Source: a virus
Virus record (IMG/VR): IMGVR_UViG_3300042864_001285
Strand: one strand, 5' to 3'
DNA length: 64,000 bases
A program made the translations under genes and the position numbers. Positions within the stretch are counted from its first letter, which is position 1, and every line of letters starts with the position of its first letter. This document shows, piece by piece, positions 3,758 through 21,399 of this stretch. The notes beneath the pieces are model-generated. The model was not told the DNA's origin. It saw only the letters and a program-made list of their open reading frames with translations, and did no database searches.

Positions 3758-3786
3758 ATTATGGCGGATGGGCGTGAAAATGGCAA
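3758..3786 (-). promoter_or_regulatory. sigma70-like promoter TTGCCA-N17-CATAAT (minus strand)
   Basis: The -35/-10 hexamers sit in reverse complement, followed by CCATTCC and an ATG. Confidence 0.5.
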
Positions 3787-3819
3787 CCTAGTACCTTAGT
3801 TCTCCAGCCAGAGGGAGGG

Positions 3820-4041
3820 TCAATCCAGGAGAACCATATATTCTCGGGCATAATGACGGCGAAACCAATCCAGCCCCTTTTGCATTCTCTTATAATCACC
3901 GACCATTTGGCAACCCATAATGGTATCATATACTGCCACAGCCTCTGGAGATAATGTAATTGATTCTCCAGAGAATGGATTGGTTACCACCTCATTTTCG
4001 GTTCCAACCATGCATTCGAATGGGAGTTTGATTTTGGACAT
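3820..4041 (-). CDS. hypothetical protein (73 aa)
   Basis: It is GC-rich and co-oriented with the 4058-4807 gene. Confidence 0.45.
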   Translation of the reverse strand: MSKIKLPFECMVGTENEVVTNPFSGESITLSPEAVAVYDTIMGCQMVGDYKRMQKGLDWFRRHYAREYMVLLD

Positions 4042-4057
4042 AATGTTTCCTTTCAGT

Positions 4058-4807
4058 TTAAACGGATGCCATCATAATGGCGGGATACTTTACAAAACCA
4101 GTGGTATCTTTTTTGGCTTTGCCTTTGGCATATAAGCCGATAACGGAGCCTTTTGGATCCAGAAAACGGAGGTCCGACTCATCGCCATTAAATACTGGCA
4201 TACTCAGATAATCAGCCGGCATTGGGAGGGTCTTTTTAATACCAAACACCACGGCTACATTATAACCTTGGGCAATAGCCTTTTCAACGTCCGAATCATT
4301 ACCATCGGCGGCTGAGAATGTCAGGTGATAATTGGGATAATCGGCAATTTTACGTCCGAGAATCTTGGTATAATCGTAGAATTGAATTTCAGGGAATGCC
4401 ATGAAAATGTTTTTATATTCCACGCCATTACGGATGGCGGCATACTTTTCAAAGGCTAGGTCCGAAGTGCCATTAAGGCGAATCACTGGAACCATATTGA
4501 TTTTAGCCGATTGTTTAATAGCCAATTCAATATCCTTGACCAGCCATTCCATAAAACCGGTGCGAGCCTCGAAAAACATTTGGGTTTTGCGGATTCGAGC
4601 CTGCTGGATAATGTTGGTGGTTTCACCTTTTTTGAACATACCGCCACGGCCAGCAAGGTTCAGGCAGGCAGCCGTGCAACCTTTGGTCCGTTTGGCGCAG
4701 GTCTCAAAACCGGACAGGTCGGCTGGAGCGAGGTGCAGGATGTAGGTATTGTAACCCTGAGCCAGGCCTTTGAGGACCTTAGGGTTACCAGTGGAGAGTA
4801 AATTCAT
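4058..4807 (-). CDS. hypothetical protein with N-terminal Cys cluster (C-x6-GC-x3-C)
   Basis: The 249-aa ORF in the GC-rich island has an AAAGG SD. It is driven by the minus promoter at 4838-4865. Confidence 0.6.
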   Translation of the reverse strand: MNLLSTGNPKVLKGLAQGYNTYILHLAPADLSGFETCAKRTKGCTAACLNLAGRGGMFKKGETTNIIQQARIRKTQMFFEARTGFMEWLVKDIELAIKQSAKINMVPVIRLNGTSDLAFEKYAAIRNGVEYKNIFMAFPEIQFYDYTKILGRKIADYPNYHLTFSAADGNDSDVEKAIAQGYNVAVVFGIKKTLPMPADYLSMPVFNGDESDLRFLDPKGSVIGLYAKGKAKKDTTGFVKYPAIMMASV

Positions 4808-4837
4808 TTTTTGACCTTTGCTTGATTTGATGGTTGG

Positions 4838-4865
4838 ATTATACCAGAACCAGAGGAAATGGCAA
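4838..4865 (-). promoter_or_regulatory. sigma70-like promoter TTGCCA-N16-TATAAT (minus strand)
   Basis: The reverse complement reads ttgccatttcctctggttctggtataat. Confidence 0.55.
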
Positions 4866-4897
4866 CCATCCGTGGAATAGTTGACCGGCTGGCTGGG

Positions 4898-5140
4898 TTA
4901 TTGTACGCCATGATACCGCAGGAGGGACCGACCTTGGTACCGTACATGGGAGAGGAGCCGCCCACCCATTACATTTTCAGGTCGGACCAAGCCTTGGGAA
5001 GGATGCAACCAAAGCACCGTTCCATCGGCATACACCTGGAAAATAGCCTCTTGACCATGGTACACCTCGGCGTAGAATCCGCCACGGGCTTTCCGGAGGT
5101 AGGAGCGGCAGTGCCGGAGGACTATATGGGGCTGGTACAT
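4898..5140 (-). CDS. small basic protein (80 aa)
   Basis: It lies about 24 nt downstream of the minus promoter at 5172-5199, with AAAAGG before the ATG. Confidence 0.3.
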   Translation of the reverse strand: MYQPHIVLRHCRSYLRKARGGFYAEVYHGQEAIFQVYADGTVLWLHPSQGLVRPENVMGGRLLSHVRYQGRSLLRYHGVQ

Positions 5141-5171
5141 TTTGCAACCTTTTCAATTTACTATGGAATGG

Positions 5172-5199
5172 ATTGTACCAGAACCAGCGAGAATGGCAA
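5172..5199 (-). promoter_or_regulatory. sigma70-like promoter TTGCCA-N16-TACAAT (minus strand)
   Basis: The reverse complement reads ttgccattctcgctggttctggtacaat, nearly identical to the copy at 5436-5463. Confidence 0.55.
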
Positions 5200-5214
5200 C
5201 CATCCTTTGGATAC

Positions 5215-5231
5215 TTGACCGGATTGGTCAA
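5215..5231. promoter_or_regulatory. palindrome TTGACC-N5-GGTCAA (operator-like)
   Basis: This is a perfect 6-5-6 inverted repeat. The same motif recurs at 6197-6213 and 6565-6581. Confidence 0.4.
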
Positions 5232-5428
5232 CCTTTGGCATGGGAGAGACCAACATTCCGAAGGGTGGCAGCCTTGGCTCCAAGGTTGGCGACCGAATAC
5301 TTGGCACCAGCCGACCAAGTCCGTTCCGACCTACGGGGGCGGGCAGGCTTGCAAATGGTAACCAATACACCGTCCAGCAGGTATTGGGCTTGGACCTTGC
5401 GGTCGGTTGGTTGAATTGATTTTATCAT
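5228..5428 (-). CDS. small protein (about 66 aa), candidate leaderless
   Basis: The ATG is exactly 7 nt (CCATTCC) after the minus-strand -10 TACAAT. Confidence 0.3.
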   Translation of the reverse strand: MIKSIQPTDRKVQAQYLLDGVLVTICKPARPRRSERTWSAGAKYSVANLGAKAATLRNVGLSHAKG

Positions 5429-5435
5429 GGAATGG

Positions 5436-5463
5436 ATTGTACCAGAACCAGCGAGAATGGCAA
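5436..5463 (-). promoter_or_regulatory. sigma70-like promoter TTGCCA-N16-TACAAT (minus strand)
   Basis: It is a near-duplicate of the 5172-5199 element and is divergent to the plus promoter at 5505-5532. Confidence 0.55.
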
Positions 5464-5504
5464 CCAATAGTTGACCGGAAGAATGGAGAACTATTGTGCT
5501 ATAT

Positions 5505-5532
5505 TGCCATTCTGGCCTGCTATGATATAATA
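5505..5532 (+). promoter_or_regulatory. sigma70-like promoter TTGCCA-N16-TATAAT
   Basis: The sequence reads ttgccattctggcctgctatgatataat and lies upstream of the 5563 gene. Confidence 0.55.
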
Positions 5533-5562
5533 ACATCATTGTAAACGAAACGAAAGTGAAAA

Positions 5563-5799
5563 ATGAAAGTAGTACAAACGTATTCAAGTGTGGAATGTAA
5601 TGAGTATTCTGTATTCAATTCTGACAATGTTCAGGTTGCATACTATATTGAACACTATGTTCACCCAATTGATGAAGAAGTATTAGAAACCCCGGTCTTC
5701 GAGATATATTATGATTACAATGAAGAAGACGATGAATACGAAAGTTCTCTTATTTCTGAGAATTTTGACGATATTCAGGAAATAATCGATTCGTTCTAA
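5563..5799 (+). CDS. very acidic small protein (78 aa, D/E/Y-rich)
   Basis: It follows its own promoter, then a terminator-like hairpin. Confidence 0.5.
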   Translation: MKVVQTYSSVECNEYSVFNSDNVQVAYYIEHYVHPIDEEVLETPVFEIYYDYNEEDDEYESSLISENFDDIQEIIDSF

Positions 5800-5805
5800 T
5801 CTAAT

Positions 5806-5826
5806 AACCCAGCAACGGGCTGGGTT
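5806..5826 (+). terminator. stem-loop aacccagc-aacg-gctgggtt fused to the next promoter (PeSL-like)
   Basis: An 8-bp stem sits immediately 5-prime of TTGCCT-N16-TATAAT. Confidence 0.4.
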
Positions 5827-5831
5827 ATCTC

Positions 5832-5859
5832 TTGCCTTCCCTGCTGGTTCTGGTATAAT
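5832..5859 (+). promoter_or_regulatory. sigma70-like promoter TTGCCT-N16-TATAAT
   Basis: The sequence reads ttgccttccctgctggttctggtataat. Confidence 0.5.
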
Positions 5860-5952
5860 TGGTACCATGATTCGAAGCGGAAGGCGGGGTGGACGTGGAG
5901 GCTGGGCGTCATAATAATAACCCAGCACTCCGGTCAAGTATATCCAAAATGG

Positions 5953-5980
5953 TTGCCAAACCTGCTGGAACCTGTAGAAT
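5953..5980 (+). promoter_or_regulatory. sigma70-like promoter TTGCCA-N16-TAGAAT
   Basis: An ATG follows 7 nt after the -10. Confidence 0.5.
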
Positions 5981-5987
5981 CCAAGAC

Positions 5988-6200
5988 ATGATGAACACAA
6001 AAACCTACACTGTAGAACACCACGACAAAACCATGGACTTCCATGTGATCCGCTGGTCCCCATTGTCCAACGGTGTCCACACTGGCGAGTCCGTAGAACG
6101 GTTCCAATGTGAGGATGAGGCCATGGAAGTGGCTCGAATCCTGAACCAAGCCGAGGAACTGAGCCTGTACCTGGACCAGTCCTGCGAATTTGATAGTTGA
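5988..6200 (+). CDS. small protein (70 aa), candidate leaderless
   Basis: The ATG lies 7 nt after TAGAAT with no SD. Its stop overlaps the TTGACC palindrome. Confidence 0.4.
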   Translation: MMNTKTYTVEHHDKTMDFHVIRWSPLSNGVHTGESVERFQCEDEAMEVARILNQAEELSLYLDQSCEFDS

Positions 6201-6220
6201 CCATTCCGGTCAAGTATTGG

Positions 6221-6248
6221 TTGACAATACTACCGGAACCTGTATAAT
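6221..6248 (+). promoter_or_regulatory. consensus sigma70 promoter TTGACA-N16-TATAAT
   Basis: Both hexamers are perfect. It is preceded by the palindrome TTGACC-attcc-GGTCAA at 6197-6213. Confidence 0.65.
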
Positions 6249-6280
6249 CCAATCCATATTGTGAAAGAAAAGGAAAGAAA

Positions 6281-6568
6281 ATGTCCCGTTTAATATCTGA
6301 GCGCACCGCCCATGCATGGTTTGATGAGATGCTGGACGACTGTGAAGGTCCGGTGGAACTGTGCGGAATGACCTATTCCGCTTCCGAGGTCCTGCGTGAG
6401 GTCGACCCGGTAGCCTATCGGTGCGGTTTTAACGACTACGTGGATTCCTTGACCGAGGAAGACGTTTTCGTGGAAGGTCTCACCGAGGATGAGATGGAGA
6501 CCGAGGATGAGGATGACGGTCAGCCGGACGAAGCCCAAGAGTGGGCGGATTTTGATGCTGATTGTTGA
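6281..6568 (+). CDS. highly acidic small protein (95 aa; C-terminal EDEMETEDEDDGQPDEAQEWADFDADC)
   Basis: It has an AAAGGAAAG SD and sits directly behind a consensus promoter. Confidence 0.55.
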   Translation: MSRLISERTAHAWFDEMLDDCEGPVELCGMTYSASEVLREVDPVAYRCGFNDYVDSLTEEDVFVEGLTEDEMETEDEDDGQPDEAQEWADFDADC

Positions 6569-6588
6569 CCTGTCCGGTCAAGTATTGG

Positions 6589-6617
6589 TTGCCAGAACCT
6601 GCTGGTTCTGGTATAAT
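6589..6617 (+). promoter_or_regulatory. sigma70-like promoter TTGCCA-N17-TATAAT
   Basis: It is preceded by the palindrome TTGACC-tgtcc-GGTCAA at 6565-6581. Confidence 0.55.
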
Positions 6618-6688
6618 CGATACCATATTCAAAAGCACCTCTCCCGGTGGTGTTTTTCAACATGGTATTGCAATTGAAAGGAAAATTA

Positions 6689-7569
6689 TGATTGAAGTGA
6701 AGTTTGTCGGTGGTAAATACGTTGCCAACATCAATGGCAAGGTGGTCAAGCGTGCCAAAAAGGAACACATGGACTATGTGATCCGCAAGGCTACAGGTGC
6801 CACCGGTGGTGCTCCTGTCAATGTCAAGGAGTCCCGCTTCACCATCAACCAGCGGTTCGGCTTTGTCTCCGACATGGTCGCCATGTTGGTGAAAGGTGAC
6901 CAGTCCTCGGTGGTTGTATCTGGTCCCGGTGGTCTCGGCAAGTCCCATACCGTCACCAAGGCACTGAATGATGCCGGCATGAAGGATGTCACCCTCCTGG
7001 ATGAATTCGAGGTCGGTGGCAAAATCAACACCACCAAGTCCTACCGTGTTATCAAGGGCTACTCCACTCCAAAGGGCCTGTACCGTACACTGTATGAAAA
7101 CAAGGACGGCGTGGTTGTTTTTGACGACTGCGACTCGGTGCTGAAGGATCCAGTGTCTCTGAACCTGCTCAAAGGTGCTCTGGACTCCTACTCCCGCCGT
7201 GTCATCTCATGGCGTGCCGACATGAAGGATGACGAACTCCCACAATCCTTTGAATTCAAAGGCCGGGTGGTGTTTATCTCTAACCTGTCCTCTGATTCGA
7301 TGGACCAAGCCATCATCACCCGTTCGATGGCTGTTGACCTGACAATGACAACGGAGCAAAAAGTGGAGCGTATGCGCCACCTGGTGTCCCTCCCAGAGTT
7401 TATGCCTGAGTATTCGAAGACAGAAAAGTCCGATGCACTGGACCTGATTGACAACCTCCAAGATGAGGTGAAAGAGTTGTCACTCCGTACACTCATCCAG
7501 ACCACTAAAATCCGCAAGTCTGCTGGTGCCAAGTGGAAAGACCTTGCAGAATACACCATCTGCGGTTGA
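6689..7569 (+). CDS. P-loop NTPase / AAA-type ATPase
   Basis: It has Walker A GPGGLGKSHT, Walker B VVVFDDCD and the SD GAAAGGAAAA. Its own sequence is GC-rich. Confidence 0.65.
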
Positions 7570-7590
7570 TTTTTACTATAAAGGAATGAT

Positions 7591-7723
7591 TATGACAAAC
7601 ACTCAAGCATTTGGTTGGAAGTATATGGTGAATTGGTTGGCTCGGAGAGAGCATAAAATTCCTGATATTACATTCACCGCCCGCACCACACACAAAATGA
7701 AAGCGACTAATGAGCAAATTTAA
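7591..7723 (+). CDS. small hypothetical protein (44 aa)
   Basis: An AAAGGA SD precedes the ATG. Confidence 0.25.
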
Positions 7724-7931
7724 AGACTTGATTATCGATATCGAATCGTGCATCACCAATGGTGATACGTTTGAGGACATTATTCAATTCGTTATGACCT
7801 CCACTGGATGTGACGAAAAGACAGCCACGGACCTGGTGTTCGAGGTCGAGGGCAACCTGTGCATGGAGGAGGAACGGAACTATTATGAGGACCAAATAGT
7901 GCTGATTGAAGGATTCTCCGAAGAGGAGTGA
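7710..7931 (+). CDS. small acidic hypothetical protein (73 aa)
   Basis: The ORF is co-oriented with its neighbours. Confidence 0.35.
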   Translation: MSKFKDLIIDIESCITNGDTFEDIIQFVMTSTGCDEKTATDLVFEVEGNLCMEEERNYYEDQIVLIEGFSEEE

Positions 7932-7947
7932 TGTTGCGTAGATGAGA

Positions 7948-7986
7948 CACCTGGTGGTTGCCAGGTGGTCTTTTTTAGAGTACAAT
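7948..7986 (+). promoter_or_regulatory. PeSL-like unit: terminator hairpin cacctgg-tggttg-ccaggtg + T6, with the -35 TTGCCA embedded in the hairpin and -10 TACAAT
   Basis: Stem-loop, T-run and TTGCCA-N17-TACAAT overlap. No ORF follows for about 400 nt. Confidence 0.5.
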
Positions 7987-8295
7987 GGATCCATTGGTTC
8001 GAACAGCAAGACTGGGGGTGGACGTAGAGGCTGCCTGATGGTTTTCCAATGGGCATCCAGCACCACTCTGAGACATTCTGAGACCCACACAGAGCAAAAC
8101 ATTCCAAACCGTGCTGGAACCCACTGGAACCCATTGGAACGTGCGGAAACGTGCTGTCACCTCTGAGACACTCTGTGAAATTTTCAGGCGTTGGCAGCCA
8201 GCAACTAAGACTAAATAGCAACCCAACACTTCCGACACACCGCGACACATCCAGCGACCTACTGACTGACTGGTCAGTTATTAAGGTCCTCAAAG

Positions 8296-8338
8296 ATATC
8301 CACAACTTATCCACAACTTATCCACACACTTATCCACA
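8296..8338 (+). repeat. four direct DnaA-box-like 9-mers (ATATCCACA, TTATCCACA x3) phased 11-12 bp apart
   Basis: Three exact matches to TTATCCACA begin at 8307, 8318 and 8330, and a one-mismatch copy begins at 8296. Confidence 0.6.
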
Positions 8339-8381
8339 GTCTCTTTTATACAACAGACGAAGTTTTCCGCAAAATATTCCA

Positions 8382-8409
8382 TTGCCATTCCTACCAGTAC
8401 CGCTATAAT
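8382..8409 (+). promoter_or_regulatory. sigma70-like promoter TTGCCA-N16-TATAAT
   Basis: An ATG follows 7 nt (ACCATCC) after the -10. Confidence 0.55.
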
Positions 8410-8416
8410 ACCATCC

Positions 8417-8659
8417 ATGACACAAACAAACACACCCAAACAATTCATTCAAGTCTCCGCACATAAGGACTCCAATAACTTTGCTCACTGGAGCAACCTG
8501 AGCCTAATGGCAAGCATGGGTCTGAATGCTGAACAAGCCCTCCGCCGTCTCCAGGCTATGGCTGATAACTATGCACTGAACGGATACACCATCGAATGGA
8601 TTCGGAATGATTTTGATTCGTTTGATGAAGAAATGTATGGAGATTTATTCAATGTATAA
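8417..8659 (+). CDS. hypothetical protein (80 aa), candidate leaderless
   Basis: It follows the promoter directly. From here onward the sequence is AT-rich. Confidence 0.5.
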   Translation: MTQTNTPKQFIQVSAHKDSNNFAHWSNLSLMASMGLNAEQALRRLQAMADNYALNGYTIEWIRNDFDSFDEEMYGDLFNV

Positions 8660-8867
8660 AGTTTCAAAACAAAACTATTTTCCCACTCTGAATTCTGCAT
8701 TAGAATCAGAAGGATTATTGGAATCTTGGGAACTTAACTTCCCTCCGCTCTCTTACGATTCTTCTTTCTCATATACTTTTGATGATGGTTCAAAGCACGG
8801 TCATTATGTTTCTCTCTATCGGGATTCTGATGGTCGTTATGAGCGCCCTGTTCATTATAAGCGGTAA
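8652..8867 (+). CDS. hypothetical protein (about 71 aa)
   Basis: The ATG overlaps the upstream stop. Confidence 0.35.
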   Translation: MYKVSKQNYFPTLNSALESEGLLESWELNFPPLSYDSSFSYTFDDGSKHGHYVSLYRDSDGRYERPVHYKR

Positions 8868-8870
8868 TTA

Positions 8871-9002
8871 TGTTTGATTTTTTTGGCTTTATACTTAATA
8901 TACTTAAAGCGGTTTTCATTTTTCTTTTTGTATTCATGTGGACAATCTTTATAATTCCCATATTTTACCATTTATTCAAATTCTTATTTCTCAATACTTG
9001 AC
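8871..9002 (+). CDS. 43-aa hydrophobic peptide (MFDFFGFILNILKAVFIFLFVFMWTIFIIPIFYHLFKFLFLNT)
   Basis: It overlaps the upstream stop by TAATTATG and is predicted to have 2 TM helices. It is not in the ORF track. Confidence 0.3.
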
Positions 9003-9030
9003 CGGACGGATGGAGAACTTTTCTAGTAGG

Positions 9031-9058
9031 TTGCCATTCTCTACGGAACCTGTATAAT
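9031..9058 (+). promoter_or_regulatory. sigma70-like promoter TTGCCA-N16-TATAAT
   Basis: TTGACCGG occurs at 8998-9005, just upstream. Confidence 0.55.
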
Positions 9059-9090
9059 TCTCTCTATTGAAACACAACAAGGACTTTTTT

Positions 9091-9258
9091 ATGAAACAAT
9101 ACTCTGTTTATTTTGACGGTTCATTCATTGAAGCTACTGGTTATTTTGAATCAGTTTCCAAGGTTCGTGCATTCTTGAAACTCCGTTATTCTAATACTAA
9201 CGGAATGACATTTCAAGCGGTTTATCCTGCTCTTGAACAAACTGTTTATGAGGTTTAA
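9091..9258 (+). CDS. hypothetical protein (55 aa)
   Basis: The SD ACAAGGAC precedes the ATG. Confidence 0.4.
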   Translation: MKQYSVYFDGSFIEATGYFESVSKVRAFLKLRYSNTNGMTFQAVYPALEQTVYEV

Positions 9259-9259
9259 T

Positions 9260-9454
9260 ATGAAAATTACTACTGCGATTTCTATCCTCGAAAAGGAACG
9301 GAACTTTCTCTCTATTGGTTTTCTTGAAGTCTTACAGGACATTCAGAAACATGGTCGTATGGTCTATTCTGAAAAGACTATGGAAGCGTTTTCTGTCTTT
9401 ATGGACGAAGGTGCTAAACTCTTTGCAACCGTTGATGAAAATGAGGAAGAATAA
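9260..9454 (+). CDS. hypothetical protein (64 aa)
   Basis: It overlaps the upstream gene by TAATATGA. Confidence 0.4.
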   Translation: MKITTAISILEKERNFLSIGFLEVLQDIQKHGRMVYSEKTMEAFSVFMDEGAKLFATVDENEEE

Positions 9455-9586
9455 TGTTTGTTATATCTGAAAAATTTGGTTTTCTCTATGAAGTATTCTA
9501 TTCTGGTACTTTTCTTGAAGCATTCTATACTCTCTCTGATGCTGAAGAATATGTAAACTTCACTAAATTTGAAATGGAGAATTATT

Positions 9587-9808
9587 ATGGCGCATGAAGT
9601 TTTCCGTTTCTGGTCACGGAGAGATACTGCCGCAGTGTTCACTAACATACCAGTTCATCTCCTGGATGAGTTTCGGTCCTATTACCCCGGTAAATACAAA
9701 ATCCGTTACCGTGGTCCACGTTCCCATCGGAGGAATGATTCTTGGATGAACCGTGCATCATATTGTCTCATGAAGGATGCAAAAACATTCTCGGCTTACC
9801 GTTATTAA
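9587..9808 (+). CDS. small basic protein (73 aa)
   Basis: The ATG follows an AT-rich leader. Confidence 0.35.
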   Translation: MAHEVFRFWSRRDTAAVFTNIPVHLLDEFRSYYPGKYKIRYRGPRSHRRNDSWMNRASYCLMKDAKTFSAYRY

Positions 9809-9823
9809 TAGGAGTATATAAAA

Positions 9824-10017
9824 TGAACGAACGAATTCTAGAACTTGCTGATAAGGCTGTTGAAGACATGCCCTCTGGTCCTTGGAACATTCCTGATGAA
9901 TTTTGCAAAAAATTCGCCGAGTTGATTGTTCGGGAATGTGTCAATGTTGTTAGTAAAGCAACTGCTAGTCCAACTGGATATCAGGCTCTTATGAAACATT
10001 TTGGAGTTGAAGAATGA
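9824..10017 (+). CDS. hypothetical protein, paralog A
   Basis: It has an AGGAG SD. The FAELIVRE...KHFGVEE pattern is shared with the next gene. Confidence 0.45.
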
Positions 10018-10244
10018 ATGAAATAATGAAAGAACTTTCAAATATTGCATACATGAACCACATGGAGAGGAATCCACATTCTTCTTTTGGTCGCCGATAC
10101 GATTATGATAAAGAGTTCGCCGAGTTAATTCTCAAAGAAACTATCTCCGTCCTACAAAAACGGTTCATGGGTGATTTGAACCGTGAGGACATGGAAGTCC
10201 GTAGGTGTATTGCAGACGTAAAAAAACATTTTGGGATTGAATGA
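10014..10244 (+). CDS. hypothetical protein, paralog B
   Basis: It overlaps the upstream gene by ATGA. The FAELILKE...KHFGIE pattern matches the upstream gene. Confidence 0.45.
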   Translation: MNEIMKELSNIAYMNHMERNPHSSFGRRYDYDKEFAELILKETISVLQKRFMGDLNREDMEVRRCIADVKKHFGIE

Positions 10245-10408: not shown

Positions 10409-10423
10409 GAACTTCTAGCTGAC

Positions 10424-10452
10424 TTGCCAAGTACCAAGGACTCTGGTACAAT
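10424..10452 (+). promoter_or_regulatory. sigma70-like promoter TTGCCA-N17-TACAAT
   Basis: The sequence reads ttgccaagtaccaaggactctggtacaat. Confidence 0.5.
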
Positions 10453-10482
10453 AGACACACAAACACTTGAAAAGGAAATCTC

Positions 10483-11123: not shown

Positions 11124-11134
11124 AGGAGTATATT

Positions 11135-14895: not shown

Positions 14896-14975
14896 GTGTT
14901 GTACCAAAACAACAAAGGCAATCTTTATGGTTGCCTTTTTTTTGGTTTCTGGTATAATAGAGTCTTATTCAATGT
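14895..14975 (+). repeat. PeSL-like cassette, copy 2 (direct repeat of 13419-13490)
   Basis: The hairpin aaaggcaa-tctttatgg-ttgccttt is followed by a T-run, then TTGCCT-N16-TATAAT at 14931-14958. Confidence 0.65.
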
Positions 14976-14987
14976 GAAAGGCATGTA

Positions 14988-15239
14988 ATGCGTACAAAAC
15001 AACTGATTTGGGGTCTGAATAACACTCAGAAGTTCCGTGCTATCGTGAATGGTGTTGGCTTCATTATGAAGGTGAAAGACCTTGAAGATAAATTTGTGTT
15101 CACCACACAGAGGGTTGCAGTATGGAATGCATTGGCAACCTGTGCAAGAGAAAACGTTAGTGGTTTTGGTACCACATACACCTACTATGATGAAAAGATG
15201 GTGGCCACTAAGGTGGATATACAGGTGAACCTTCTTTGA
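14988..15239 (+). CDS. hypothetical protein (83 aa)
   Basis: It lies downstream of the copy-2 promoter. Confidence 0.45.
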   Translation: MRTKQLIWGLNNTQKFRAIVNGVGFIMKVKDLEDKFVFTTQRVAVWNALATCARENVSGFGTTYTYYDEKMVATKVDIQVNLL

Positions 15240-15347
15240 AGGATGGACATACCTACTTATGCAACAAACAAGAATGGAAAGAGGTTAATATGGATATAAA
15301 CTGGTACATGATTGTTGTCTCCATGCAACATGTCTACCAAAAAATGG

Positions 15348-15376
15348 TTGCCATCTGGCAAAAACTGTGATATAAT
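15348..15376 (+). promoter_or_regulatory. sigma70-like promoter TTGCCA-N17-TATAAT
   Basis: It shares the ggttgcc and tataataga motifs with the PeSL copies. Confidence 0.5.
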
Positions 15377-15390
15377 AGAAACACCTTGTT

Positions 15391-16554
15391 ATGGAGAACT
15401 TTATGAATCGTAATGCAAAAGCATTCGTCCAAGCCGCATCTGAGATTTTCGGTGAGAATGCAATTTTGAGCCGTGACCAAATTCAACGTGTCGTTGATGA
15501 ACGGTCTGTTCCTTATCCCTTCTGGTTTGTCACTCGCCAAGAGTTTCGTTCTGGTCGTGGCCAATACCTTCTTCCTAATGCACCAAACGCCGTGTCATGT
15601 GATGTTGCAGTTGAAGAACCTGCCGTTGTCGAATTGACACAAACTGCCACTGTCCATGTTCTCCGTCAAAAGAAACTTGAAGACCATGCAGATACTTCTA
15701 TCCCTGAAAAATACCAAGGCTATGTCCCCTTTGGTTTCTACAAAGACCTGACCTCCATTGTACTCTCACAGGAATTCTTCCCTGTGTTCATTACTGGTAT
15801 GTCTGGTAATGGTAAGACACTCATGGTTGAACAAGTGTGTGCCACACTCAAACGTGAATGTATCCGTGTGAACATCTCCGTTGAGACTGATGAATCTGAC
15901 CTGATTGGTGGTCCAACACTTATCGATGGTAACGTGGTGTACCGTGATGGTCCTGTGATGACTGCCATGAAACGTGGTGCAATTCTCTTGATTGACGAAG
16001 TTGACCGTGGTTCAAACAAACTGATGTGCCTTCAAGGTATTCTTGAAGGCAAACCTTACTTCAACAAAAAGTCTGGTGAATACATCTATCCAAAACGTGG
16101 CTTCAACGTTGTTGCAACTGCTAACACCAAAGGCCGTGGCTCTGAAGAGGGTCGTTACCTGTCACAGATTCTTGATGATGCGTTCCTTGAGCGTTTCAAC
16201 ATCACCGTTGAACAGGAATATCCTGAAGCCAAGGTTGAACTCAAGATTCTCAAACCATTGTTGAATGATGATGAGTTTGCCGAGAACCTTGTGAAGTGGG
16301 CTGACGTTATTCGTAAAACATTCGCCGAAGGTGGTGTTGATGAGATTGTCTCCACTCGCCGTTTGGTACACATTGCAAAGACTTATTCAATCTTCAAAGA
16401 CCGTTCGAAGGCAATTCAACTCTGTGTGAATCGTTTTGACCAAGAAACCAAAGATTCGTTCCTTGACCTGTACTCGAAAGTTGATATCAAAGTGGCGGAG
16501 GCAAACACTGCACCTGTGATGCCGACCTCACCTGATGATGAAGTGCCATTCTAA
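15391..16554 (+). CDS. cobS: CobS-like MoxR/AAA_5 ATPase
   Basis: Walker A GMSGNGKT and Walker B LLIDEVD sit within an AAA_5-like core. The length is 387 aa, typical of phage cobS. Confidence 0.6.
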   Translation: MENFMNRNAKAFVQAASEIFGENAILSRDQIQRVVDERSVPYPFWFVTRQEFRSGRGQYLLPNAPNAVSCDVAVEEPAVVELTQTATVHVLRQKKLEDHADTSIPEKYQGYVPFGFYKDLTSIVLSQEFFPVFITGMSGNGKTLMVEQVCATLKRECIRVNISVETDESDLIGGPTLIDGNVVYRDGPVMTAMKRGAILLIDEVDRGSNKLMCLQGILEGKPYFNKKSGEYIYPKRGFNVVATANTKGRGSEEGRYLSQILDDAFLERFNITVEQEYPEAKVELKILKPLLNDDEFAENLVKWADVIRKTFAEGGVDEIVSTRRLVHIAKTYSIFKDRSKAIQLCVNRFDQETKDSFLDLYSKVDIKVAEANTAPVMPTSPDDEVPF

Positions 16555-16570
16555 ACTGTGGTATTTTTCC

Positions 16571-16609
16571 AACAGAGTGGTTGCCACCAGACTGTCACTC
16601 TGTTACAAT
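16571..16609 (+). promoter_or_regulatory. PeSL-like: hairpin aacagagtg...cactctgtt with TTGCCA in the loop, then TACAAT
   Basis: A 9-bp stem encloses TTGCCA-N17-TACAAT. Confidence 0.45.
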
Positions 16610-16643
16610 TGAATCTGGTAAACTTTTTCTCAAAGGATATATT

Positions 16644-16961
16644 ATGCGTACTACCACTAAAATCAACCGTCACGAAAAAATTGCTTGCGTTATGCTCTCT
16701 GGCAAGCCTGTCTCTCCCGCTGAGATTGAGGCTTGCTTCAAAGGCAGTGACCAAGAAGGTGTTCTCTATCGCCTCTCCACAAACATCTACAACATCCGCA
16801 AAGATGGTGGAATTGTCCGTGTTTACAAAGATGGTCGAAAAGTGACTGCATATCAGTTGGTAAACTTTGACGAATTCTCTCCTGAAGGTCGTTATATCGG
16901 TAAAACTAAAACCGCACAAGTTGCCGTACAAGTAACCGAACAAGTTGCTGAGACTGTGTAA
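16644..16961 (+). CDS. hypothetical protein (105 aa)
   Basis: The SD AAAGGA precedes the ATG. Confidence 0.45.
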   Translation: MRTTTKINRHEKIACVMLSGKPVSPAEIEACFKGSDQEGVLYRLSTNIYNIRKDGGIVRVYKDGRKVTAYQLVNFDEFSPEGRYIGKTKTAQVAVQVTEQVAETV

Positions 16962-17572
16962 TGGCAATCAATACTCCTAATTGGGGTATTGACCCATATA
17001 CCGATATCAATTTCACATATAAAGATATTGATATAGACCACATGAATCATATCAAAAAGGTTTTGTTTGCAAAATTAAATTTATTGTTTTCTGGACTTCC
17101 AAGTGAATTGAGTGGCTTTCTACGTGACAAAGCAATTCTCACGGGTGGTGCAATTTCTTCACTCATGCATGATGAACCACCTAAAGACTATGATTTGTAT
17201 CTACAGGACAAAAATGACATAATGTTCTTCAAACAATATGTCAATGACATGAATAAAGATTTTATTCAGGACGCCGATGAAAAATATGTTGAAGTGCAGG
17301 TCGAAGGTAAATTGGTGACTGCAAATGCCACCACATTTAAAAATGGCCTTCAAGTGATTACACTTGCTACTGCTGATTCACGAAGCACATTTGATTTTGT
17401 GCATTGTATGCCGTGGTATAAAATTTCAAGCCACACACTTTACATTTCGAAGAAGCAATACAATGCAATTCTAAACAAACAATTGATTAAGAATCCGCAT
17501 AAAAATGCATTTGCACTTTCACATAAACGTATTGAAAAATACACTGCCAAAGGATGGAGTTTCCCTAAATGA
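16961..17572 (+). CDS. nucleotidyltransferase-fold protein (pol-beta superfamily minimal motif)
   Basis: LTGGAISS followed about 15 residues later by DYDLYL fits the hG[GS]...DhDh pattern. Confidence 0.4.
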   Translation: MAINTPNWGIDPYTDINFTYKDIDIDHMNHIKKVLFAKLNLLFSGLPSELSGFLRDKAILTGGAISSLMHDEPPKDYDLYLQDKNDIMFFKQYVNDMNKDFIQDADEKYVEVQVEGKLVTANATTFKNGLQVITLATADSRSTFDFVHCMPWYKISSHTLYISKKQYNAILNKQLIKNPHKNAFALSHKRIEKYTAKGWSFPK

Positions 17573-17745
17573 TTCGTATTATTTTTGCATTCATTGTGGT
17601 CTTTTTGATTTTCTTTTTCGGAATCAAAGTGTTCACCCAACTAAGTGGTAAAGAAAAGTGGGTTCTAACAAAACTATTTGCATATAGCATGGTCTGTGCT
17701 ATAATCACTGTTGTGTTCCTTGCTTCTATTGTTGTTCTCTTTTAA
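17569..17745 (+). CDS. 58-aa membrane protein with 2 TM helices
   Basis: It overlaps the upstream gene by ATGA and is not in the ORF track. It lies immediately upstream of the SPFH gene. Confidence 0.4.
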   Translation: MIRIIFAFIVVFLIFFFGIKVFTQLSGKEKWVLTKLFAYSMVCAIITVVFLASIVVLF

Positions 17746-17754
17746 AGGATTATT

Positions 17755-18567
17755 ATGTCTCGCTTTCTGAAAATTTCTGTTATCGCCGCCGCTGTTGCTA
17801 TGACTGCCGCATGTACCCGTATTGAAACGGGTGAGGTTGGTGTTCGTGTTGGCTTTGATAAACAAGTTCAATCTGGTGAATTGCTTCCAGGTTCTTTCAA
17901 CCAAACTTTGATTGGTAATGTACTTACATTCCCCGTTAAGGATGTGAACGTGGTCTTGGAGAATATGACTCCAGTGGCTAAAGACAACTCTACCATGAAA
18001 GACTTTGATGCTGTAGTTGTTTACAACATCAATCCACAAACTGTTGCTGAATTGTACTCCACTAAGAATAAAAGTTTCCACGCTGAATTCAAGGGTGATA
18101 CATATGTGATGTATAATTATGTTGTGCAAAATGCTCGTAATGCTATCTACAAAGCCGCTCGAAAGTATGAAGCATTGGACATGGCAGATGCCCGATCCGA
18201 CATGGAGAACTTTATCAAGGACGAAATCGTTCGCAACTTGGCAGAAGAAAAGTTGGATGGTCCCATCACTATCAGCCAAGTTATGATTCGTAGCGTTGTA
18301 CCTGCTGATTCTGTTGTTGCATCGGCTAACGATTTGGTTCGTTCAAAGAATGAATTCAAACAAAAGACTGTTGAAGTTGAAACTGCAAAGAAAGAAGCTG
18401 AACGTATTGCCGCTTTGAATTCAAATGCTGGTGCTATTCAATACATGGATGCTCAAACACGTATGACCCTTGCTGAAGCCGCTAAGATTCAAGCACAAGG
18501 TATCGCCGCCTTTAAGGGTAACACATTGGTGATTGGTGCTGGCGCTAACGTGAACGTAGGTAAATAA
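17755..18567 (+). CDS. SPFH/Band-7 (prohibitin/stomatin-like) domain lipoprotein
   Basis: The N-terminal signal peptide ends in a lipobox-like AAC. The SPFH-like core is followed by a coiled-coil tail. Confidence 0.55.
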   Translation: MSRFLKISVIAAAVAMTAACTRIETGEVGVRVGFDKQVQSGELLPGSFNQTLIGNVLTFPVKDVNVVLENMTPVAKDNSTMKDFDAVVVYNINPQTVAELYSTKNKSFHAEFKGDTYVMYNYVVQNARNAIYKAARKYEALDMADARSDMENFIKDEIVRNLAEEKLDGPITISQVMIRSVVPADSVVASANDLVRSKNEFKQKTVEVETAKKEAERIAALNSNAGAIQYMDAQTRMTLAEAAKIQAQGIAAFKGNTLVIGAGANVNVGK

Positions 18568-18758
18568 TGAAACTCAAATGCGGACCAAAAGACTATTCCG
18601 GTAAAATGCAATGGCACGATTGGTTCGCATGGTTTCCTGTTACTGTGGCAAACAACGACTGTCGATGGCTTGAAACTGTTGACAGGCGTGGTAACATAGA
18701 GTACACTATGGATGGTCGTCCTTATTGGAACTTTGAATACAGAGCAAAAGGAATTTAA
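18567..18758 (+). CDS. hypothetical protein (63 aa)
   Basis: It overlaps the upstream gene by TAATG. Confidence 0.4.
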   Translation: MKLKCGPKDYSGKMQWHDWFAWFPVTVANNDCRWLETVDRRGNIEYTMDGRPYWNFEYRAKGI

Positions 18759-19100
18759 AATGGAATTTTTTCACTTCTATCTTGATGCATGGAAATTTTG
18801 TACAGACAATCACATTGATACAAACAATATTAAGCGCCAAGATTGGGCGACATGGGTGGTAGAAGTAGATGCGCCGGAGGAGATTTAAAATCAACAAAAG
18901 CAGGTCTGCCGTATCCAAAAGAATTGATAGATGGCTTGCTGAAATTGGAAGAGGTGAATCACGGAGTGGTTCCAGGAAAACTAGAAAAAAACATGTTATA
19001 TGGGCTGGCATCAACAATATGTCTAAATTTAGAGCAAAAAGAATTGGTCACAAAACACCACCAAAAAGATTACTGTGGTGGAAAAATGAAGGTATACAAA

Positions 19101-20098
19101 TGAATGATAATAACGGTGAAATTTTCTTAGGTGCAAATGATATTGCGGACCTGCTCATAAGCAAAATTTTAAAAGAGCGTTCTGAACGCCAACTTGAAAC
19201 CTTTCAAACTAGGTTGAGCATGTATGCGACCAAAAAAGAATGGTTGGATTACATCGACACAATTCAGGATCTCCGCCGTTTTCAATATGAAAATGGAACC
19301 GGATATTTCTTTAATGATGATTCTTTGTCTTATTTGTTTTTCAACATTCACTCTACACACGTATCTGTTGAACTTGTGGGTGATGATGAATTTGTTGAGA
19401 AGTATGAAAAACAATTCGAAAATGATTTTGAGTTTGTAACGAACCAAATCGAATGGATCTATGCCGCTGATGGTTCTTCTATTGAGATTCCACTCCGCCA
19501 TGACCGTATGCCAGTTGAAGAAATGTATCCGTTTCTTGAAGATCAAACACTCGCTGAATTCTATGACAACTTCATGCATTCATCTGCATCTATTCTGTTG
19601 TTGATTGGACCACCAGGTACTGGTAAGACTACATTCATTCGTGGTCTACTACAACACTCTGAAGCATCCGCTATTGTGTCTTATGATTCAAACGTGTTGG
19701 AAAAAGATTATGTGTTCGCCAACTTTATTGAAGGTGAAAAGAACGTTCTCGTTCTCGAAGATGCTGATATGTTCTTGAAAGCACGTGCTGAAGGTAACAC
19801 AATGATGCACAAGTTTCTAAACGTTGGTGATGGTCTTGTGACTACACGAAACAAGAAACTCATTTTCTCAACAAACCTCCCATCTGTTCGTGATATCGAT
19901 CCTGCACTGATTCGTCCAGGTCGTTGCTATGACATTATACACTTTGAAGAACTGACACAATCACAAGCTGAAAAGCTGGCAACAAAAGTTGGAACTAAAT
20001 TGAATCGTGAACGTATATCATGGTCCATTGCCGATGTGTTTTTTGAACAAAACACAAACATGAAAAAGCCTGTAGAAAGAAAAATGGGGTTTATATGA
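19101..20098 (+). CDS. classic AAA+ ATPase
   Basis: It has Walker A GPPGTGKT, Walker B VLVLEDAD and the Arg finger region RPGR. I placed the start at 19101, after the SD AAGG. Confidence 0.55.
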
Positions 20099-20295
20099 GA
20101 TATGAAATTTCTGATCAGTATCAACAATATCAATATTTTCTCGATGTTGAAGATATTCGTGAACTAAAACATGTAACACTTTCGATTAAATATCAAGGTG
20201 CTAAGTTTCCTGATGCCATCCAGTCTAAGGTTGAGTTTTTCCTGAACCCTGGTGAATGGAATCGACTGGTCGACACTCTGGCTAGCATTAAGTGA
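20095..20295 (+). CDS. hypothetical protein (66 aa)
   Basis: It overlaps the upstream gene by ATGA. Confidence 0.4.
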   Translation: MRYEISDQYQQYQYFLDVEDIRELKHVTLSIKYQGAKFPDAIQSKVEFFLNPGEWNRLVDTLASIK

Positions 20296-20300
20296 CCTAG

Positions 20301-20331
20301 GCGCTCCAGGACGTTCCTGGTGCGTCTTTTT
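20301..20331 (+). terminator. rho-independent terminator
   Basis: The hairpin gcgctccagg-acgtt-cctggtgcg is followed by TTTTT. Confidence 0.5.
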
Positions 20332-20365
20332 CTGTTGTTTTTTTGCAACAAACGTGAAATAACAC

Positions 20366-20394
20366 TTGCCATTCTACTTGGTTTATGTTATAAT
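20366..20394 (+). promoter_or_regulatory. sigma70-like promoter TTGCCA-N17-TATAAT
   Basis: The ATG at 20400 lies 5 nt after the -10. Confidence 0.5.
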
Positions 20395-20399
20395 ATATT

Positions 20400-20657
20400 A
20401 TGAACGCAAATTATTTTCGTATGTTAATCTCAGATGAGATTCGTGAAACTATCATGTGGTCCGGTCTCGCTGAAAATTTCCGTGATATCCGAACCAAAGA
20501 AGTTGATTCAAAAGGTAAAACCTTTTATCGCCTGAAAATGATTGAAGGTGAGATTTTGGTGTATTCACCGAAGGTCATCTATATCAATGGCCACAAAACC
20601 CATTCGGTACATGAGGCTAAACGGCACCTTCAATACAACTACATTGAAAAACTTTAG
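20400..20657 (+). CDS. hypothetical protein (85 aa)
   Basis: It follows the promoter directly. Confidence 0.45.
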   Translation: MNANYFRMLISDEIRETIMWSGLAENFRDIRTKEVDSKGKTFYRLKMIEGEILVYSPKVIYINGHKTHSVHEAKRHLQYNYIEKL

Positions 20658-20774
20658 ACATGGCATTCTATGGAATCCATGTTGCACTGCAACAAAAACT
20701 CCTATATAATCTAAGTAGTAACGCTAATGTAGATTACTATTTTTATTAACCCTCGCTAAATTTAGGAGAAAAAA

Positions 20775-20993
20775 ATGTTCGCAACAGACACATTCATCGA
20801 TACCGTCCAAGGTTCTAAAAAGTATTTTGTATCCGCTTTCATTACTGATGAAAAGATTCGCAAGCCATTAAATGCATTTGTTGATGCACAAACTGCATTC
20901 ACAAAACAAATCTTCAAATCATTTACTGAAGTTTCGAAACATATAACAGACGAAGCTACAAATGCTGTTCAAAAAGCGGCTAAAGCTGTCTAA
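20775..20993 (+). CDS. hypothetical protein (72 aa)
   Basis: The SD AGGAG precedes the ATG. Confidence 0.45.
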   Translation: MFATDTFIDTVQGSKKYFVSAFITDEKIRKPLNAFVDAQTAFTKQIFKSFTEVSKHITDEATNAVQKAAKAV

Positions 20994-21097
20994 ATAATTG
21001 GAGACAAACATGTCTTTAATTAAACAAACATTGGAAATGATTTGCGATTTTCTAACTGAATTTCGTAAGAATCCAAAGAATACAGGAATGTACTAAA

Positions 21098-21262
21098 ATG
21101 CAAGAAAAAATTGAACAAGAATTTGATAAGATGATTGCTGAAATGCAAGCATTGGAAAAAAGAATTCAAGAATTGAATGTTAGTGGTATTCGTGTGAACG
21201 AAGAATTATCCGCAACAGTTGAAATTTTAAAGAATCAGATTGATGCCGTGACACCTAAATAA
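21098..21262 (+). CDS. small coiled-coil protein (54 aa)
   Basis: The ATG follows GGAATG. It is not in the ORF track. Confidence 0.3.
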   Translation: MQEKIEQEFDKMIAEMQALEKRIQELNVSGIRVNEELSATVEILKNQIDAVTPK

Positions 21263-21344
21263 ATCATCTGAAACAATTCTGGTTTTATTATGGACAATTT
21301 TGAGTTATTCCTGGAACAGGTAAAGATATATCAAGAAATCGAAG

Positions 21345-21399
21345 AACGCCGAAAAAAGAGGCTTTATGCCTTGACATTCGGCGTTTTTTGTTTTATAAT
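21345..21399 (+). promoter_or_regulatory. PeSL-like: hairpin aacgccgaa...ttcggcgtt enclosing TTGACA, then TATAAT
   Basis: TTGACA-N17-TATAAT has both consensus hexamers. Confidence 0.55.

Follow-up and report, generated by a model that had tools for sequence, protein, structure and literature searches.

Probable sigma70-type early promoters joined to hairpins and palindromes in an uncultured aquatic T4-type myovirus, and their likely part in gene exchange

The viral record IMGVR_UViG_3300042864_001285 carries, at positions 3758-21399 of the 64,000-nucleotide (nt) stretch analysed here (the window), a family of short recurrent elements in which sigma70-type promoter boxes adjoin or enter hairpins and palindromes. 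A sequence-only reading had read them as promoter early stem-loops (PeSLs), regulatory cassettes proposed to drive modular gene shuffling in T4-type phages and especially in cyanophages. The locus raises the question of whether these elements are promoters, and whether genes are gained and lost by recombination between them. They are probably early promoters of the sigma70 type in an uncultured aquatic T4-type myovirus that exchanges genes by the PeSL mechanism, an element of a known kind in a new lineage and with features specific to that lineage.

The motif TTGCCW-N16/17-TAYAAT was matched exactly 15 times in the window, against 0.09 matches expected from dinucleotide shuffles (none of 100 shuffles reached 15), and all 15 lie within 4838-20394. 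TTGACA-N16/17-TAYAAT was matched three times (6221, 21371 and 25597; 0.16 expected), and 17 of the 18 exact matches to the two -35 types fall within 4838-21399. A weight-matrix scan, as the sequence-only reading had suggested, was carried out with a matrix trained on the window's sites; it returned 24 sites at a score of 16 or more, against about 0.2 under a first-order Markov null, all of them at 3758-27920, with the window's structural half free of hits. Most promoters match 10-12 of the 12 consensus positions, with the sigma70-like -35 and -10 boxes and the spacing of about 17 nt that characterize PeSLs, and 20 of 20 face an open reading frame (ORF) or an RNA gene. The promoters at 4865, 5199 and 5463 and a weaker one at 3786 are on the minus strand, the rest on the plus strand. 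The sites lie clustered among ORFs whose products measure 45-290 amino acids (aa) and mostly have no family hits, as PeSLs do in the hyperplastic regions of T4-type genomes. The motif family was thus borne out, with a lower count than the 'at least 19 copies' first given: TTGCCA or TTGACA with TATAAT or TACAAT occurs 14 times in 3758-21399, admission of TTGCCT raises this to 17, and 19 is reached only with -10 boxes carrying one mismatch (TAGAAT at 5953, CATAAT at 3786 on the minus strand).

Scans for other signals gave little. The T4 late-promoter motif TATAAATA was matched twice in the window (3.8 expected), without enrichment, and an E-value scan of positions 1-30 kb with Rfam gave nothing credible on the cassettes. 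Matches to DapZ and MicX over the terminator at 13.4 kb were rejected, being far under the gathering scores.

Two sub-families were distinguished. Members of sub-family A (the promoters of 3786-9031) share about 60-75 nt and a constant order of modules: an upstream module, CCGGTCAA(G/C)TAT or TGGAGAACTWT, then TGG-TTGCCA-TTC, a spacer ending in CTGGTTCTGG or CGGAACCTG, TATAAT and CCAnnCCAT. The CCGGTCAA(G/C)TAT form often completes the palindrome TTGACC-N5-GGTCAA or has AATAACCCAGC before it. Spacers do recur, as first noticed: CTGGTTCTGG is present in five promoters (4865, 5199 and 5463 on the minus strand, 5832 and 6589) and GGAACCTG in three (5953, 6221 and 9031). At 6198, 6566 and 5230(-), the upstream ORF ends with a TGA that is part of TTGACC, so that the connector spans exactly the distance from stop codon to start codon; the intergenic connectors measure 75-120 nt and have the stop-to-start layout of PeSLs. 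The sub-family A cassettes coincide with a block (3500-8500) of 48% G+C, against 39% in 8500-22000. This block includes the minus-strand gene group 3415-5428, the early region being otherwise plus-strand. Sub-family B (13456, 14931, 15348, 20366 and 21371) has a T-rich spacer of 17 nt (16 nt at 14931), which is at the same time the U tract of a predicted terminator with the -35 box in its 3' arm or loop; a small GTTGT-N6-ACAAC hairpin is often found upstream.

Promoters with a 16-nt spacer keep YGG-WW-C-(CTG or TGG) directly 5' of TATAAT (the GGWWC element), even in relatives with 57-80% CobS identity, and any of GGAACC, GGTTCC and GGTACC can stand there. To our knowledge, this conservation is not accounted for by known sigma70 contacts. 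The palindrome TTGACC-N5-GGTCAA occurs three times in the window (0.05 expected), and lies 6-7 nt upstream of the -35 box in at least 15 unique cassettes of relatives; in L023 and L030 (related loci bear L numbers) it has changed with pairing preserved, to TCGACC...GGTCGG and CCGACC...GGTCGG. Small hairpins of the GTTGT-N6-ACAAC type number 11 (2.9 expected), four of them beside promoters, and are weak, with A/U-rich stems of 5-6 bp.

Hairpins were scored by RNA folding against 200 shuffles. Those at 5804, 6197, 6565, 7948, 13439, 14914, 20299 and 21340 gave z-scores of -3.0 to -6.5. The hairpins at 7948-7967 (-17 kcal/mol, z -3.7) and 21340-21390 (-27.9 kcal/mol, z -6.5) are followed by U6, those at 13439-13463 (-18 kcal/mol, z -4.7) and 14914-14938 (-18 kcal/mol, z -3.5) by U8, and that at 20299-20327 (-25.1 kcal/mol, z -6.1) has a U-rich tail; these five have the form of canonical intrinsic terminators. 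The hairpin at 6565 together with the adjoining spacer hairpin reached -26.5 kcal/mol (z -5.3), and that at 5804-5828 reached -15.6 kcal/mol (z -3.9); a U tract is lacking at 5804 and at the TTGACC and GTTGT hairpins. Folding of the 16571 hairpin was not above chance (z -1.1), the 5215(-) hairpin scored z -0.9, and no hairpin was found at promoters 8382 and 25597. Five of the six hairpins named in the sequence-only reading (5806, 7948, 13439, 14914 and 21345) therefore fold well beyond shuffles and the sixth (16571) does not, and the -35 hexamer does lie within the loop or 3' arm at 7948, 13439, 14914 and 21340. Since 16571 is at chance level and neither 5806 nor TTGACC-N5-GGTCAA has a U tract, the label 'terminator', given to all six, appears justified only for the predicted structures at 7948, 13439, 14914, 20299 and 21340; four of the six calls stand (7948, 13439, 14914 and 21345) and those of 5806 and 16571 do not.

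Under the PeSL mechanism, host RNA polymerase of the sigma70 type would read early promoters packed into the variable early region, and almost all small genes, or short groups of them, would be transcription units in their own right. The connector would run from the upstream stop codon through a hairpin or palindrome to the -35 box, spacer, -10 box and next start codon. About five connectors would contain a canonical terminator, with the -35 box in its 3' arm or loop and the U tract as spacer; as such a terminator carries -35 and spacer, termination and re-initiation would share one compact cassette. The cassettes are alike over 30-75 nt, which makes crossover between them possible, and the phage's own homologous recombination would delete, insert or swap single-ORF modules while a working promoter is retained (Arbiol et al., 2010). 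Promoter activity, termination, a start 6-8 nt past the -10 box and recombination as the cause of the indels (insertions or deletions) are predictions from sequence.

Recombination junctions were sought by chained blastn of window positions 1-26000 against 17 loci of relatives (73-98% identity), and 68 indel or replacement events were listed. In at least six events, against relatives of 86-98% identity, one genome has a gene with two cassettes and the other a single chimeric cassette. The alignments show the relative's cassette to consist of the left part of one window cassette and the right part of the other, with the switch point within the -35 to -10 core or within the terminator. The cassette-bounded events comprise 4888-5166 (277 bp; ORF 4898-5140; 57-nt overlap in the relative), 4878-5427 (548 bp; two ORFs; overlap 51-59 nt), 4903-5831 (927 bp), 5531-5831 (299 bp; ORF 5563-5799; overlap 29 nt, the entire promoter) and 13487-14897 (1.4 kb; a GmrSD_N/HNH nuclease gene; overlap 47-74 nt). 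An extra ORF of about 300 bp lies between duplicated copies of the 6589 cassette in L016, L017 and L018, a 260-bp insertion is found at the 6221 cassette in L017, and gene order is shuffled in L009. The window-only segment 4888-5166 starts and stops within promoter cores, the layout that would be expected from integration of a circle made of an ORF plus one cassette, or of a substrate for excision. For 37 nt, the paralogous cassettes 5199(-) and 5463(-) show no difference in their cores, and the L035 orthologue differs, which suggests exchange or duplication within the lineage.

Other results weigh against a leading part for the cassettes. Variable junctions are not enriched among those with promoters (12 of 16, against 27 of 40 without; 56 junctions, Fisher p=0.75), and about 45 of the 68 events are at promoter-less start/stop overlaps, with at most 12 nt of overlap. 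Gene turnover thus occurs at almost every gene boundary in the clade, and the cassettes account for a minority of the plasticity; they provide long homology at some boundaries and are neither its main nor its preferred route. The proposal that they 'drive modular shuffling' does not hold, as cassette junctions are no more variable than the others; with turnover equally frequent without them, cassettes would be one route among several. The 30 nt upstream of sub-family A promoters are 40-63% AT, against 52% locally and 61% genome-wide, and those of sub-family B, at 53-73%, are barely above the 61% background; the AT-rich stretch of PeSLs is thus not seen. The hairpins of sub-family A that lack a U tract (TTGACC-N5-GGTCAA and 5804) may be protein-binding palindromes and not terminators, and the 1.4-kb nuclease gene insertion may have been moved by homing and not by cassette recombination.

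The last of these alternatives concerns the insertion 13510-14895 alone, which would have been placed by its own nuclease, the flanking homology having been carried along or copied, and would then be no evidence for cassette shuffling. We regard it as somewhat unlikely. The gene (plus strand) encodes 461 aa with a GmrSD_N-like N-terminus (under the Pfam cut-off), an HNH_4 domain (22.7 bits; cut-off 22) and PHROG matches to HNH/endonuclease VII proteins. It is confined to the window's own population and missing in every diverged relative aligned across the junction, each of which has one cassette at the position of 14898-14958, and searches of IMG/VR for relatives of ORFs 13510-14895 and 4898-5140 gave no close homologue. 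A GmrSD-like architecture, however, suggests a restriction-type nuclease and not a classical free-standing homing endonuclease, and what has been duplicated is precisely the terminator-promoter cassette, a pattern shared with the smaller, nuclease-free events.

The upstream palindromes could, instead of forming RNA stem-loops, be bound by a dimeric regulator of phage or host origin as its operators or activator sites, an explanation that would extend to TTGACC-N5-GGTCAA, GTTGT-N6-ACAAC, TGGAGAACT and the symmetric GGWWC(C) beside the -10 box. The cassettes would then be regulated promoters, for instance for a timed shut-off of early genes, and such regulation is compatible with the PeSL mechanism. 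The missing U tracts and weak GTTGT-type stems fit sites of this kind, as does the half-site CCGGTCAA, which stands alone at 4881, 5471, 5930 and 8998, where no hairpin can form. The fixed distance of 6-7 nt between palindrome and -35 box in the relatives' cassettes also agrees with protein binding, as do GGAACC and GGTTCC, reverse complements that occupy the same spacer position. No candidate regulator was found, however; the compensatory change of TTGACC/GGTCAA to CCGACC/GGTCGG in L023 and L030 fits a hairpin at least equally well, and the stem-loops of published PeSLs are likewise weak and variable (PMC2839356). On balance, operators in place of stem-loops are unlikely.

Still less likely, in our estimate, is that the elements are promoters only, some with terminators, alike by functional constraint, the indels being due to illegitimate or microhomology recombination or to nucleases. 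The cassette-bounded appearance would then reflect survival of whole-gene indels with intergenic breakpoints. This would agree with the even variability of junctions and with most indels lying at promoter-less junctions with overlaps of 1-12 nt. The extended motif (the TGG flank of the -35 box and the GGWWC spacer) is moreover kept in distant relatives, so that similarity need not stem from recent exchange. Survivorship of indels that leave genes intact would suffice for intergenic breakpoints, but not for the precise chimeras of at least six events, with 29-74 nt common to both window copies at the junction, which illegitimate recombination would not yield repeatedly; nor does it fit the 37-nt identity of the 5199(-) and 5463(-) cores, from which the L035 orthologue differs. 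A mobile element resembling a miniature inverted-repeat transposable element was rejected, since terminal inverted repeats and target duplications are both lacking and every repeat is oriented to a gene as a promoter would be.

The PeSL mechanism remains the explanation that we favour. Gene content from PHROG and Pfam scans marks the window as a T4-type myovirus, with a CobS-like AAA protein (15391-16554), RNase H (11778-12215), a baseplate tail-tube cap/gp48-like protein and gp6-, gp7- and gp8-like baseplate wedge proteins (36783-51079), and a glycosyltransferase gene. By tblastn, the gp6-like protein is closest among cultured phages to Pelagibacter phage HTVC008M (41.9% aa identity) and Methylophilales phage Melnitz (36%), with Synechococcus phages (30-37%) next. 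Megablast against 50,697 cultured phage records gave a single match, 137 bp of CobS in Synechococcus phages, so that there is no annotated close relative among cultured phages. The exact sequence recurs in several metagenome assemblies, L002-L006 matching the window at 99.9-100% identity along up to 17.6 kb, and a graded series of relatives is present in IMG/VR. The lineage would be an uncultured freshwater or aquatic one, nearer to pelagimyophages, Melnitz and cyanomyophages.

So far, PeSLs have been described for three pairs of T4-like phages, all of them cultured and infecting enterobacteria or vibrios, RB49/phi1 (PMC2839356) and T4/PST and KVP40/nt-1 (PMC4122927). They are defined by an upstream stop codon, an AT-rich stretch, a stem-loop, sigma70-like boxes, a Shine-Dalgarno (SD) sequence and ATG, by conservation over about 100 bp and by location in hyperplastic regions, with indels flanked by them; the stem-loop may take any of five positions relative to the boxes (upstream, overlapping, between, after) (PMC2839356). 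By architecture and indel behaviour, the window's cassettes appear to agree with this definition, except for the AT-rich stretch. They resemble the RB49/phi1 units in their near-consensus boxes, in the variable position of the stem-loop, in being densely arrayed among ORFans where a T4-type genome is hyperplastic, and in the gene flanked by two units in one phage where a relative has a single chimeric unit. They differ from them in having no sequence homology, in preferring TTGCCA to TTGACA as -35, in the absence from sub-family A of an AT-rich upstream region and of poly-G/poly-C stems, in units without SD whose ATG is at the predicted +1, and in not being preferentially tied to variable junctions.

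Each T4-like lineage has its own flavour of PeSL, and those of nt-1/KVP40 include degenerate -35 variants, TTGYVH (PMC4122927). The nt-1 stem A3-4G3-loop-C3T3-4 (PMC4122927) is much like AAAGGCAATC-loop-GGTTGCCTTT of the window; host group and clade differ from those of T4/PST and KVP40/nt-1, and no Mot-box (PmSL) variants were seen in the window. The emphasis on cyanophages has no basis, because the original description does not mention cyanophages (PMC2839356) and S-PM2, according to the S-PM2 paper, lacks the PeSL density of other T4-like phages; the gp6-like protein, too, is closest to those of HTVC008M and Melnitz. Of the identification as PeSLs, the architecture and the recombination signature were upheld, while the cyanophage emphasis, two terminator calls and the driving role were not. 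The PeSL architecture would be extended to an uncultured aquatic lineage, with junctions mapped to the nucleotide by means of metagenome-assembled relatives alone, and with it the idea that single genes pass between T4-type phages as modules ready for expression. The early promoters of T4 itself reportedly use the unmodified host sigma70 RNA polymerase, are said to be conserved well beyond the hexamers and to cluster before small non-essential early genes, and reportedly have -35 boxes of the GTTTAC type and A/T-rich, UP-like regions. Extended conservation and clustering before small early genes are shared by the window's promoters, which differ in the G+C-rich GGWWC spacer element and in the TGG before the -35 box.

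The promoters recur throughout the clade. Motif density is 0.1-1 per kb in nearly all related loci, and among 523 unique motif matches TTGCCA (226) is at least as common a -35 box as TTGACA (179). The model TGG-TTGCCA-N16/17-TAYAAT would be usable for early-gene annotation in the clade, and the spacer element is a candidate regulatory site. The distance to the start codon was surveyed for 448 unique promoters of the window and 119 related loci, taking the first ATG that opens an ORF of at least 40 codons. It is bimodal: 51 promoters (about 11%) have the ATG 6-8 nt past the -10 box, one has it at 9-12 nt, and there is a broad peak at 27-38 nt. Transcription would thus start where a sigma70 promoter predicts, which bears indirectly on the starts 7+/-1 nt past the -10 box that the sequence-only reading required. 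In the window, 12 promoters have an ATG with SD 26-38 nt past the -10 box, and those before the ATGs at 5428(-), 5988, 8417 and 20400 have it at 6-8 nt, without SD; a mini-ORF of 15 codons at 5867 also opens 6-8 nt past the -10 box. ORFs of the short-distance class are kept as proteins from residue 1 in relatives, and the 6-7 nt between -10 box and ATG vary in sequence at a fixed length.

The short-distance class would give leaderless mRNAs with the A of the ATG as 5' end, and with it a predicted set of leaderless early genes. The lambda cI mRNA made from PRM is a leaderless phage mRNA, with its start codon at the transcript's 5' end, as predicted here from an ATG 6-8 nt past the -10 box. It belongs to a single regulatory gene, whereas the predicted design recurs in about 11% of the clade's early promoters. 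For T4-like phages, literature searches on DnaA boxes and on early genes without leaders gave nothing pertinent beyond the Melnitz paper (PMC9004378).

A further, tentative proposal, which we hold to be possible rather than probable, joins several of these features. Sub-family A would consist of gene connectors with the stop codon in the palindrome, GGWWC(C) at about -20 to -15 and the start codon at +1, about one-ninth of the early promoters would be leaderless, and promoters 5832 and 7958 would feed a possible DnaA-recruiting origin. Genes could then be swapped as bare ORFs without a 5' untranslated region (5'UTR). After promoters 5832 and 7958 there is a non-coding element of about 40 nt, ATTCGAA-AGCAG-ACTGGGGTGGACGYGGAGGCTG (5866-5905 and 7997-8035), which is without an ORF. 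It is also present in L001, L011, L012, L013, L021, L025 and L027, and starts at the predicted +1 in each genome; RNAalifold gave no supported consensus fold for it (-2.85 kcal/mol). In several genomes, a cluster of DnaA boxes lies 220-600 nt downstream of the element.

In the window, promoter 7958 is followed by an ORF-poor interval, 8050-8340, in which three TTATCCACA 9-mers stand in tandem without mismatch (8307, 8318 and 8330), preceded by ATATCCACA and by the short repeats CTGAGACA (three copies) and CTGGAACCCA (two to three copies). The 9-mer is the DnaA-box consensus of the E. coli type. Clusters of 2-4 TTWTCCACA are conserved across many relatives, distant ones included (L011, L012, L023, L025, L027, L030, L076 and L091). 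The cluster may serve to initiate replication or to titrate DnaA; in the former case, it would be a transcription-activated origin that recruits host DnaA. We know of no description of such an origin for T4-like phages.

The individual cassettes were mapped as follows, starting with those of the minus strand. The promoter at 3758-3786 (TTGCCA-N17-CATAAT followed by CCATTCCATG; weight-matrix score 22.8) faces ORF 3529-3750, for which an SD-led ATG at 3726 is a possible alternative start. At 4838-4865, TTGCCA-N16-TATAAT, with the CTGGTTCTGG spacer and with CCGGTCAA and AATAACCCAGC upstream, would drive a GP88-family gene (4058-4807, minus strand) that has an SD and an ATG 31 nt past the -10 box. 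TTGCCA-N16-TACAAT at 5172-5199, with the palindrome TTGACC-N5-GGTCAA upstream (5215-5231), would serve ORF 4898-5140, which is absent from relatives. The same boxes at 5436-5463 are followed after 8 nt by the ATG of the candidate leaderless ORF 5228-5428, which ends in a TGA within the TTGACC of the next cassette. This promoter forms the opposed pair of the sequence-only reading with TTGCCA-N16-TATAAT at 5504-5531 (+); the two are back to back, their -35 hexamers (5458-5463 and 5504-5509) being 40 nt apart. Their common upstream region (5464-5503) is a palindrome, CAATAGTT-N16-AACTATTG, that holds TTGACCGG-N4-ATGGAGAAC. The plus-strand promoter of the pair would drive ORF 5563-5799 (SD, ATG at +32), absent from L035 and L018.

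All remaining cassettes are on the plus strand. The hairpin ATAACCCAGC-N5-GCTGGGTTAT (5804-5828) adjoins the 5' side of the promoter TTGCCT-N16-TATAAT (5832-5859), which would drive no gene, only the first copy of the conserved non-coding element. At 5953-5980, TTGCCA-N16-TAGAAT has the GGAACCTG spacer and, 8 nt past the -10 box, the ATG of the candidate leaderless ORF 5988-6200. The TGA of this ORF lies in the palindrome TTGACC-N5-GGTCAA at 6197-6213, which is separated by 7 nt (GTATTGG) from the promoter TTGACA-N16-TATAAT (6221-6248) of ORF 6281-6568. The TGA of that ORF is, in turn, contained in the same palindrome at 6565-6581, before the promoter TTGCCA-N17-TATAAT (6589-6617), the spacer of which includes the hairpin CCAGAACC-TGCT-GGTTCTGG. 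This promoter would drive the gene of a 293-aa P-loop ATPase (6688-7569) through a 5'UTR hairpin. At 7948-7977, CACCTGG-N6-CCAGGTG plus U6 resembles an intrinsic terminator, with the -35 box TTGCCA in loop and 3' arm; the promoter of this cassette (7948-7986) would drive the second copy of the non-coding element. TTGCCA-N16-TATAAT at 8382-8409 has an ATG 8 nt past the -10 box that opens the candidate leaderless ORF 8417-8659; the same boxes at 9031-9058, with the GGAACCTG spacer and TTGACCGG-N4-ATGGAGAAC upstream, would drive ORF 9091-9258.

Further downstream, TTGCCA-N17-TACAAT at 10424-10452 is preceded by a long hairpin (10363-10420; z -2.4) and would drive ORF 10483-10893. The cassette at 13421-13484 consists of a GTTGT-N6-ACAAC hairpin and the predicted terminator AAAGGCAATC-N5-GGTTGCCTTT plus U8, with the -35 box TTGCCT in the 3' arm and a -10 box ending at 13484; it is the left copy of the duplicated cassette that flanks nuclease gene 13510-14895, and the right copy (14898-14958) would drive ORF 14988-15239. 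TTGCCA-N17-TATAAT at 15348-15376, which would drive the CobS-like AAA gene with a reading frame of 15403-16554, has its -35 box within a small hairpin, TTGCCA-TC-TGGCAA, and GTTGT-N6-GCAAC upstream. TTGCCA-N17-TACAAT at 16581-16609 would drive ORF 16644-16961. The strong predicted terminator at 20299-20327 is followed by a GTTGT-N7-GCAAC hairpin (20333-20350) and by TTGCCA-N17-TATAAT (20366-20394), with the ATG of the candidate leaderless ORF 20400-20657 placed 6 nt past the -10 box. In the last cassette of the range, the hairpin CGCCGAA...TTCGGCG plus U6 (21340-21390) encloses the -35 box TTGACA; the -10 box TATAAT ends at 21399, and ORF 21437-21745 would be driven from it.

Beyond this range, TTGACA-N17-TATAAT at 25597-25625 (+) would drive a permuted (two-piece) transfer-messenger RNA (tmRNA) gene at 25635-25985 (+), which begins about 10 nt past the promoter. 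The gene was detected with Rfam RF04321 (91.3 bits; gathering score 47) and alpha_tmRNA (46.2 bits); ARAGORN reported no transfer RNA or tmRNA and missed it. A two-piece tmRNA with an early promoter immediately before it is likewise described for Melnitz and pelagimyophages (Buchholz et al., 2022; PMC9004378). That paper differs in that its promoters were called with BPROM, and no composite cassettes, recombination at them or leaderless genes are described.

Some minor observations concern neighbouring features. Between promoter 6589 and the ATPase gene, the 5'UTR hairpin at 6627-6655 (+) is terminator-like, AAAGCACC-TCTCCC-GGTGGTG plus U5, and is conserved in both L013 and L016; an attenuator, or the source of a short transcript, are possible roles for it. 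In a scan of bacterial genomes for a clue to the host, a 74%-identical relative of the 293-aa ATPase was found on L119 (CAIVQI010000123.1), an 8.9-kb contig binned in the metagenome-assembled genome 'uncultured Bacteroidetes bacterium LaPlata_bin-2831'; this binning is probably an artefact, rather than evidence of a host. The 203-aa product of 16961-17572 (+) is listed as Pfam Gad2 (PF26128) in a precomputed table, an uncertain annotation, and our own Pfam scan of it gave no family at E<=0.01. The 1-kb segment 17558-18567, which includes the gene of an SPFH/Band 7 protein (17755-18567), is absent from L040, L046, L047 and L065, and its breakpoints are promoter-less gene junctions.

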